Below, in pieces: positions 6,922-7,200 of a stretch of DNA of 64,000 nucleotides. Location of the stretch: NCBI RefSeq assembly GCF_003334765.1, contig NZ_QOWT01000001.1; one strand, 5' to 3'. The notes under the pieces are model-generated. The model was not told where the DNA came from and did no database searches. It worked only from the letters and a program-made list of their open reading frames with translations. This DNA comes from Escherichia coli (lineage in GTDB: Bacteria; Pseudomonadota; Gammaproteobacteria; Enterobacterales; Enterobacteriaceae). Every line of letters starts with the position of its first letter. Position 1 is the first letter of the stretch. The position numbers were made by a program, and so were the translations under genes.

Positions 6922-7029
6922 TCAGCCCCAAATCATTGCTGCCCAACGTAGCAACAACATAGCGCCACAGATTGCCAGTAGCACCACCACCATCTTCCAG
7001 TGTTTTTTATCAAAGCGTTTAGTCGGCAT
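6922..7029 (-). CDS. yniD: Small single-TM membrane protein YniD (35 aa)
   Basis: ATG at 7029-7027 (MPTKRFDKKHWKMVVVLLAICG...); ORF track extends upstream to a GTG at 7140. Confidence 0.7.
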   Translation of the reverse strand: MPTKRFDKKHWKMVVVLLAICGAMLLLRWAAMIWG

Positions 7030-7200
7030 ACCAGTGTCCTGCATATCTCTTGTGCGTGATAACGGAGTGTAACAAAAGGGACAGGCATCAAGGGATTTTT
7101 TGTTATTACAGCCGTCGGGTGGCGTTGTGCACATGGTCACTGTTTCTGCGTTTTATGAAAAAAATAAAATTATGTATCGATATATATCGTAAATAGCTGG

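Follow-up and report, generated by a model that had tools for sequence, protein, structure and literature searches.

Results

The yniD locus and the open frame above it

In this study, we examined yniD, the gene of a small membrane protein, together with the reading frame that stays open above its start codon, in a stretch of Escherichia coli DNA of 64,000 nucleotides (the window). All coordinates are window positions, and both yniD and the upstream frame lie on the minus strand. The window is E. coli K-12: positions 6850-7260 are 100% identical to DH10B, whose RefSeq annotation gives a "small membrane protein YniD" of 35 amino acids (aa), with a frameshifted espL1 (arpB) upstream and the convergent gene ydiY downstream. 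The list of open reading frames (ORFs) holds a minus-strand ORF at 6922..7140 of 72 aa with a GTG start at 7140. Its first 37 codons encode MTMCTTPPDGCNNKKSLDACPFCYTPLSRTRDMQDTG, which is followed by MPTKRF..., and its last 35 codons (residues 38-72) are YniD, MPTKRFDKKHWKMVVVLLAICGAMLLLRWAAMIWG. The stop-free run above the ATG at 7029 comprises 41 codons, within which the GTG at 7140, 37 codons up, is the first in-frame start. Cysteines occupy positions 4, 11, 20 and 23 of the extension, giving the spacing C-x6-C-x8-C-x2-C. Both the frame open for 37 codons from GTG 7140 and this spacing had been described in an earlier note on this DNA, and the ORF list and the cysteine positions agree with it. 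Taken together, our results indicate that the 111 nt upstream of yniD are very probably non-coding, forming a chance open frame through promoter, leader and insertion flank, and that no Cys-rich N-terminal domain is made. The features on which this reading rests are:

6922..7029, minus strand: yniD coding sequence (CDS), 35 codons plus stop, encoding a small single-pass membrane protein (match to NF041491; substitutions relative to E. albertii)
7030..7140, minus strand: 37-codon in-frame "extension", very probably non-coding and stop-free by happenstance
7037..7040, minus strand: Shine-Dalgarno (SD) sequence AGGA for ATG 7029, 7 nt before the ATG, anti-SD duplex -4.7 kcal/mol
7030..7057, minus strand: 5' untranslated region (UTR) of yniD, 28 nt, with the transcription start site (TSS) at 7057 (PMC3415461)
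7066..7074, minus strand: putative extended -10 element TGTTACACT (TGn + TACACT), recognized by conservation, with the TSS 8 nt after the hexamer

Start codon and protein family

Translation of yniD starts at ATG 7029, giving the 35-aa membrane protein. The NCBIfam model NF041491 (membrane_YniD, an equivalog) matches the ORF with 82.9 bits (cutoff 40), and profile positions 1-34 correspond to ORF residues 39-72; the extension alone has no NCBIfam match. Residues 38-72 of the ORF are exactly the YniD of this family (UniProt YNID_ECOLI, 35 aa), and neither the family profile nor the orthologs contain anything equivalent to the 37-codon extension. No ribosome-binding site was found before GTG 7140, where the anti-SD duplex energy is about 0 kcal/mol (+0.2, compared with -0.2 for ATG 7134, -2.9 for ATG 7044 and -4.7 kcal/mol for ATG 7029). 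On NC_000913.2, GTG 7140, ATG 7134, ATG 7044 and ATG 7029 correspond to positions 1803078, 1803084, 1803174 and 1803189.

Scanning species-representative genomes yielded 80 loci, and the 58 in which the YniD start could be placed automatically served as the comparison set. Throughout these 58 loci the ATG, an N-terminus of the form MP(T/S)xRF and the ribosome-binding site are conserved. More generally, all orthologs examined retain the equivalent of ATG 7029 and, 6-10 nt ahead of it, the ribosome-binding site (AGGA, GGGA or AAGGA), and start codon, ribosome-binding site and a length of 35-36 aa are common to Escherichia, Citrobacter, Enterobacter, Lelliottia, Kluyvera and Rahnella; in Pantoea and Erwinia, tblastn matched YniD at the loci, with the start codons not located. 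The earlier note had considered ATG 7029 with its AGGA the likelier start, a preference strengthened by the conserved ATG and site, by the restriction of the NF041491 match to residues 39-72, and by a leader of 28 nt.

Transcription start and promoter

The yniD TSS was placed at NC_000913 1803161 (+), with 29 reads and a 5' UTR of 28 nt, by 5' rapid amplification of cDNA ends (RACE) and sequencing of exonuclease-enriched primary 5' ends from mid-exponential MG1655 (Kim et al. 2012, PMC3415461, Table S1). It is the single yniD TSS in that study, which gives no other plus-strand TSS between thrS and yniD. The 51-nt upstream sequence listed there, AATAACAAAAAATCCCTTGATGCCTGTCCCTTTTGTTACACTCCGTTATCA, is identical to window 7107..7057, so the TSS is the A at 7057. 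This position falls in extension codon 28, 83 nt downstream of GTG 7140 and 77 nt downstream of ATG 7134, and the GTG and all four Cys codons, being upstream of it, therefore lie outside the mapped mRNA. As to a second source, the accessible text of the Cappable-seq and ROSE supplements held no yniD entry.

Upstream of yniD, one block alone is conserved, (T)TTG-n-TA-(C/G/A)-ACT. As TGnTACACT it is invariant across seven Escherichia lineages with diverged flanks, and in 48 of the 58 loci (Escherichia, Citrobacter, Enterobacter, Lelliottia, Kluyvera) the block precedes the ATG by 37-45 nt. Its layout is that of extended -10 sigma-70 promoters, in which a TG at -15/-14 and one further base precede the hexamer, and the primary 5' end follows 5-9 nt past it. 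In yniD, TGTTACACT at 7074-7066 shows this order of elements, TGnTACACT matches TGnTATAAT at the TG and at hexamer positions 1, 2, 4 and 6, and the 5' end lies 8 nt past the hexamer. The -35 region is non-conserved, consisting of insertion DNA in E. coli, of IS1 in strain IHE3034 and of thrS-side DNA elsewhere; such non-homology among lineages fits a -35-independent promoter. From this pattern of conservation, we infer that TGnTACACT is a functional -10 element that would work without a -35 element. A consensus promoter scan, which demands a -35 hexamer that is absent here, called no promoter on the minus strand. Read in the extension frame, TGTTACACT becomes Phe-Cys23-Tyr-Thr, the Cys23 codon TGT supplying the promoter "TG", and the apparent conservation of "PFCYT" is thus a promoter footprint.

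It is unlikely that the conserved TTTGTTACACT block is instead a regulator binding site or a 5'-UTR RNA element. Such a role would account for its being the only conserved block above yniD, and the 8-nt gap between hexamer and TSS is near the long end of the usual range. However, with the mapped 5' end lying downstream of it, the block is absent from the RNA; the positions at which it varies obey the -10 consensus (TG-n-TA-n-A-C-T), and no better -10 hexamer occurs between it and the TSS. Rfam, too, identified no RNA family in the region, its one match being a chance snoRNA hit outside the feature (E 0.87), and a structured RNA upstream of yniD was rejected on this result. Rahnella (L064-L069) presents a different arrangement: the yniD ATG lies ~25-30 nt past the stop codon of the upstream gene and the TGnTAnACT motif is absent, which suggests that yniD is co-transcribed there with the upstream gene and does not rely on a promoter of its own.

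One other in-frame start, ATG 7044, is located on the mapped transcript, 13 nt from its 5' end, and would encode a 40-aa isoform (MQDTG-MPTKR...). The original DH10B record carried this form as an annotation, as do >900 contigs, and an AAGAG ahead of the ATG has weak anti-SD complementarity (-2.9 kcal/mol). The AAGAG, however, is poorly spaced, with only 2 nt to the ATG; Escherichia sp. MOD1-EC7003 has ACG in place of this ATG, and E. albertii has AAA; the stronger AGGA, placed for ATG 7029, would fall inside the 40-aa ORF; and the family profile begins at residue 39. We consider this isoform quite improbable and retain ATG 7029 as the start.

The espL1 insertion and its boundary

The upper half of the extension belongs to a different stretch of DNA than the lower half, as becomes apparent from two further features:

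7087..7200, minus strand: 3' flank of the espL1/arpB insertion, holding extension codons 1-18, GTG 7140, Cys4 and Cys11
7201..8616, minus strand: C-terminal piece of espL1 (arpB), homolog of an ankyrin-repeat type III effector, a frameshifted pseudogene in K-12

In the Escherichia lineages that lack espL1 (L009, L012, L013 and L014), homology to the window exists only from 7085-7088 downward, and in L009, L012 and L014 it returns at thrS, from 9573 upward. Because these lineages align only below ~7086, codons 1-18 are insertion flank and codons 19-37 are ancestral promoter and leader. In E. coli IHE3034, espL1 is deleted and an IS1 (IS1A), which has taken the place of all DNA above 7086, joins yniD exactly at 7086/7087 (L089, 2480-2510); with the IS1 comes a TAA in the yniD frame, 25 codons above the ATG, and yniD is unchanged. 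Two independent rearrangements, the homology edge of the espL1-less lineages at 7085-7088 and the IS1 of IHE3034, share this boundary ~29 nt upstream of the TSS.

The inserted gene, espL1/arpB, is a homolog of the ShET2/EspL2 family, split in K-12 by a frameshift into ORFs at 7201..8616 and 8627..9100 (both minus strand). It is intact in some strains (MA11, LS45 and FFFEB2), more decayed in others, and absent from several Escherichia lineages. On the far side of the insertion, above about -51 from the thrS ATG (9624), the K-12 leader and promoter (9462-9573, plus strand) do not align with the espL1-less Escherichia E69 and E. whittamii or with Citrobacter gillenii, which share a different conserved stretch of ~190 nt upstream of thrS (L009, L014 and L056, at 1252-1444). 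The espL1 insertion may have replaced part of the thrS upstream region, which in K-12 contains the thrS autoregulatory operator.

Just past the espL1 stop, an AT-rich palindrome, CGATATATATCG, is followed by a T-run (7160-7195, minus strand) and could be a weak espL1 terminator. Among E. coli strains, the spacer is prone to indels in this region only, and all its indels lie upstream of the GTG. At the other end of yniD, one more candidate terminator was found:

6878..6902, called on the plus strand: G+C-rich hairpin with an 11-bp stem, 20 nt past the yniD stop, between the convergent yniD and ydiY

This hairpin is probably a bidirectional terminator shared by yniD and ydiY; its T-run on the yniD side is weak (AGATAATTTT).

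Conservation and substitution pattern

A 119-nt query covering the extension found matches in 5,417 of 5,426 complete genomes, at 90-100% identity. Base-by-base comparison of 12 E. coli genomes revealed 7 variable sites in the 111 nt, 6 of them nonsynonymous (T2I, M3R, D9N, G10D, C20R and D32N); the sole synonymous variant was TGC to TGT at Cys4. The change C20R, by which a proposed ligand is lost, was present in 3 of the 12 genomes, and of the 12 E. coli genomes that carry the espL1 flank, 10 had AGG at extension codon 3 (ATG 7134). The YniD CDS was invariant among the E. coli genomes compared, save for one L-to-V change.

Beyond E. coli, the open frame above the yniD ATG has a median length of 8 codons in the 58 loci. 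It reaches at least 37 codons in 6 of them, in unrelated sequences, which is about chance since ~10% would be expected, and none of these carries the Cys motif. Stops and frameshifts of the upstream frame in close relatives, which by the earlier note's own account would refute a longer product, do occur. A 1-nt indel and, 22 codons above the ATG, a stop interrupt the frame in Escherichia sp. MOD1-EC7003, where no in-frame start exists; in E. whittamii and Escherichia sp. E1V33, TGA stands where K-12 has the Cys-20 codon. In E. albertii, 36 codons are open upstream, with one of the four cysteines kept (Cys23).

The substitutions themselves differ in kind on the two sides of the ATG. Between K-12 and E. 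albertii, the YniD CDS shows 17 differences, 15 of them at third positions (15 synonymous and 1 nonsynonymous codon changes). In contrast, the 57 nt upstream show 19 differences distributed 6/7/6 over the codon positions (0 synonymous, 13 nonsynonymous). Comparison with E. whittamii and with E1V33 gave the same contrast between CDS and upstream sequence.

A single NCBI contig (14.7 kb, P0001) has an 82-aa prediction made up of YniD 1-21, extension 12-37 and a full YniD. This protein resembles the product of a ~140-nt tandem duplication, and the extension part would be translated from the normal start there.

The cysteines and the zinc-ribbon question

A zinc ribbon fold needs two knuckles of the CxxC/CxxH type. 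The extension resembles it in having four cysteines in 20 residues and one CxxC. It differs in that this is its only knuckle, the other pair being Cx6C, and in that its cysteines are unconserved: Cys-20 is lost both in E. coli (C20R in 3/12) and in E. whittamii and E1V33 (TGA), Cys4 and Cys11 are missing wherever the espL1 flank is absent, and Cys23 is the promoter TG. The only Pfam match, the zinc-finger-like PF04071 over residues 11-35, was non-significant (independent E-value, i-E, 0.07; 13.5 bits), and NCBIfam gave none. With one knuckle, a non-significant profile match and unconserved ligands, we rejected a zinc finger or ribbon in the extension. The spacing that the earlier note had called zinc-ribbon-like is thus not the canonical two-knuckle arrangement, and its cysteines are not conserved even within E. 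coli.

Discussion

Our results point to a chance open frame above yniD, and the reading that has to be weighed most directly against this is a longer protein. A 72-aa isoform from GTG 7140, or a 70-aa isoform from ATG 7134, would be made from espL1/arpB read-through transcripts and would carry a Cys-rich, possibly metal-binding, cytoplasmic N-terminus. Several results count in its favour and weigh against a non-coding extension. A length change was seen in 0 of 59 full-length matches, a spread sample across the 5,417 genomes, so that the frame is intact in E. coli proper and in all sampled E. coli with the espL1 flank. The stretch from the espL1 stop to GTG 7140 had no intrinsic terminator call, and peaks of RNA polymerase holoenzyme in SELEX (systematic evolution of ligands by exponential enrichment) are located 1.4-1.9 kb upstream; a read-through mRNA carrying the GTG is therefore conceivable. 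The TSS is known from a single published data set, obtained under one growth condition. Further, when the 171-nt espL1-yniD spacer was shuffled 20,000 times with dinucleotides preserved, just 0.18% of the shuffles combined at least 4 cysteines with an in-frame start 37 or more codons up. Finally, 72- and 70-aa forms exist in automated annotation, as "transmembrane anchor protein".

Some of these points have an ordinary explanation. An intact frame within E. coli is expected, because divergence there is 5% or less. At least 41 codons stayed open in 10.1% of the shuffles, which renders the open frame alone unremarkable, and an in-frame start at least 37 codons upstream appeared in 5.9%. The Cys count is unusual for one locus, yet at 0.18% per locus, a genome with its thousands of genes would still be expected to hold a few such Cys-rich cases. 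The cysteine codons, moreover, have trivial origins, Cys4 and Cys11 deriving from the insertion flank and Cys23 from the promoter TG.

Against the long forms stand the mapped TSS, which follows the GTG by 83 nt, the missing ribosome-binding site, and the AGG found instead of ATG 7134 in 10 of 12 E. coli genomes. To these are added the loss of Cys-20 in 3 of 12 genomes with 6 of 7 polymorphisms nonsynonymous, the derivation of half of the extension from an insertion flank absent from other Escherichia, the broken frame in sister lineages, and the lack of a significant zinc-finger profile match. We regard a 72- or 70-aa isoform as very improbable. The longer isoform that the earlier note had left room for thus finds its GTG and four Cys codons upstream of the TSS, no ribosome-binding site to start from, and its frame broken in relatives. 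That neither a ribosome-binding site, nor conservation, nor purifying selection is seen argues against a functional long product, and we further infer that the GTG is not used for translation on any longer transcript made under particular conditions.

Initiation profiling, reportedly in the hands of Meydan et al. and of Weaver et al., both in 2019, has revealed N-terminal isoforms from alternative starts in E. coli. The yniD frame resembles those cases in its in-frame upstream start with an open frame; it differs from them in that this start is off the mapped transcript, lacks a ribosome-binding site and is unconserved. It is also conceivable in principle that the espL1 insertion created a de novo Cys-rich tail of YniD, restricted to E. 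coli and Shigella and translated from GTG 7140 upon espL1 read-through, a scenario that we hold to be extremely improbable. A long isoform, if true, would yield an N-terminal peptide from MTMCTTPPDG or CNNKKSLDACPFCYTPLSR.

How a non-coding segment came to look like a gene extension can be reconstructed from two pieces. The first is the ancestral yniD promoter and leader, from ~7086 to 7030, comprising the putative -10 element, the TSS, the 28-nt leader and the AGGA. The second is the 3' flank of the espL1/arpB insertion, from 7087 to 7200, an insertion that the E. coli lineage gained between thrS and yniD. The joined pieces simply happen to be stop-free in the yniD frame, with a GTG 37 codons up.

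This reading also accounts for the discordant database entries. YniD is present in versions of 72, 70 and 40 aa, all of them automated calls, and curated entries give 35 aa. The 72- and 70-aa entries bear the name cited above (e.g., Q0T4T2_SHIF8 and B7MAT3_ECO45), and the 40-aa entries are named "hypothetical protein", or "predicted protein" in the DH10B record. We can explain the 40-, 70- and 72-aa versions as over-extensions through promoter and leader, and the curated 35-aa start is confirmed.

Conclusion

In conclusion, the Cys-rich frame upstream of yniD is real as sequence, ordinary in nature, and matters little. It illustrates, on a small scale, that a promoter joined to the flank of an insertion can yield an uninterrupted frame with a motif in it. 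Incidentally, its analysis also points to a conserved extended -10 promoter that would serve yniD across Enterobacteriaceae.
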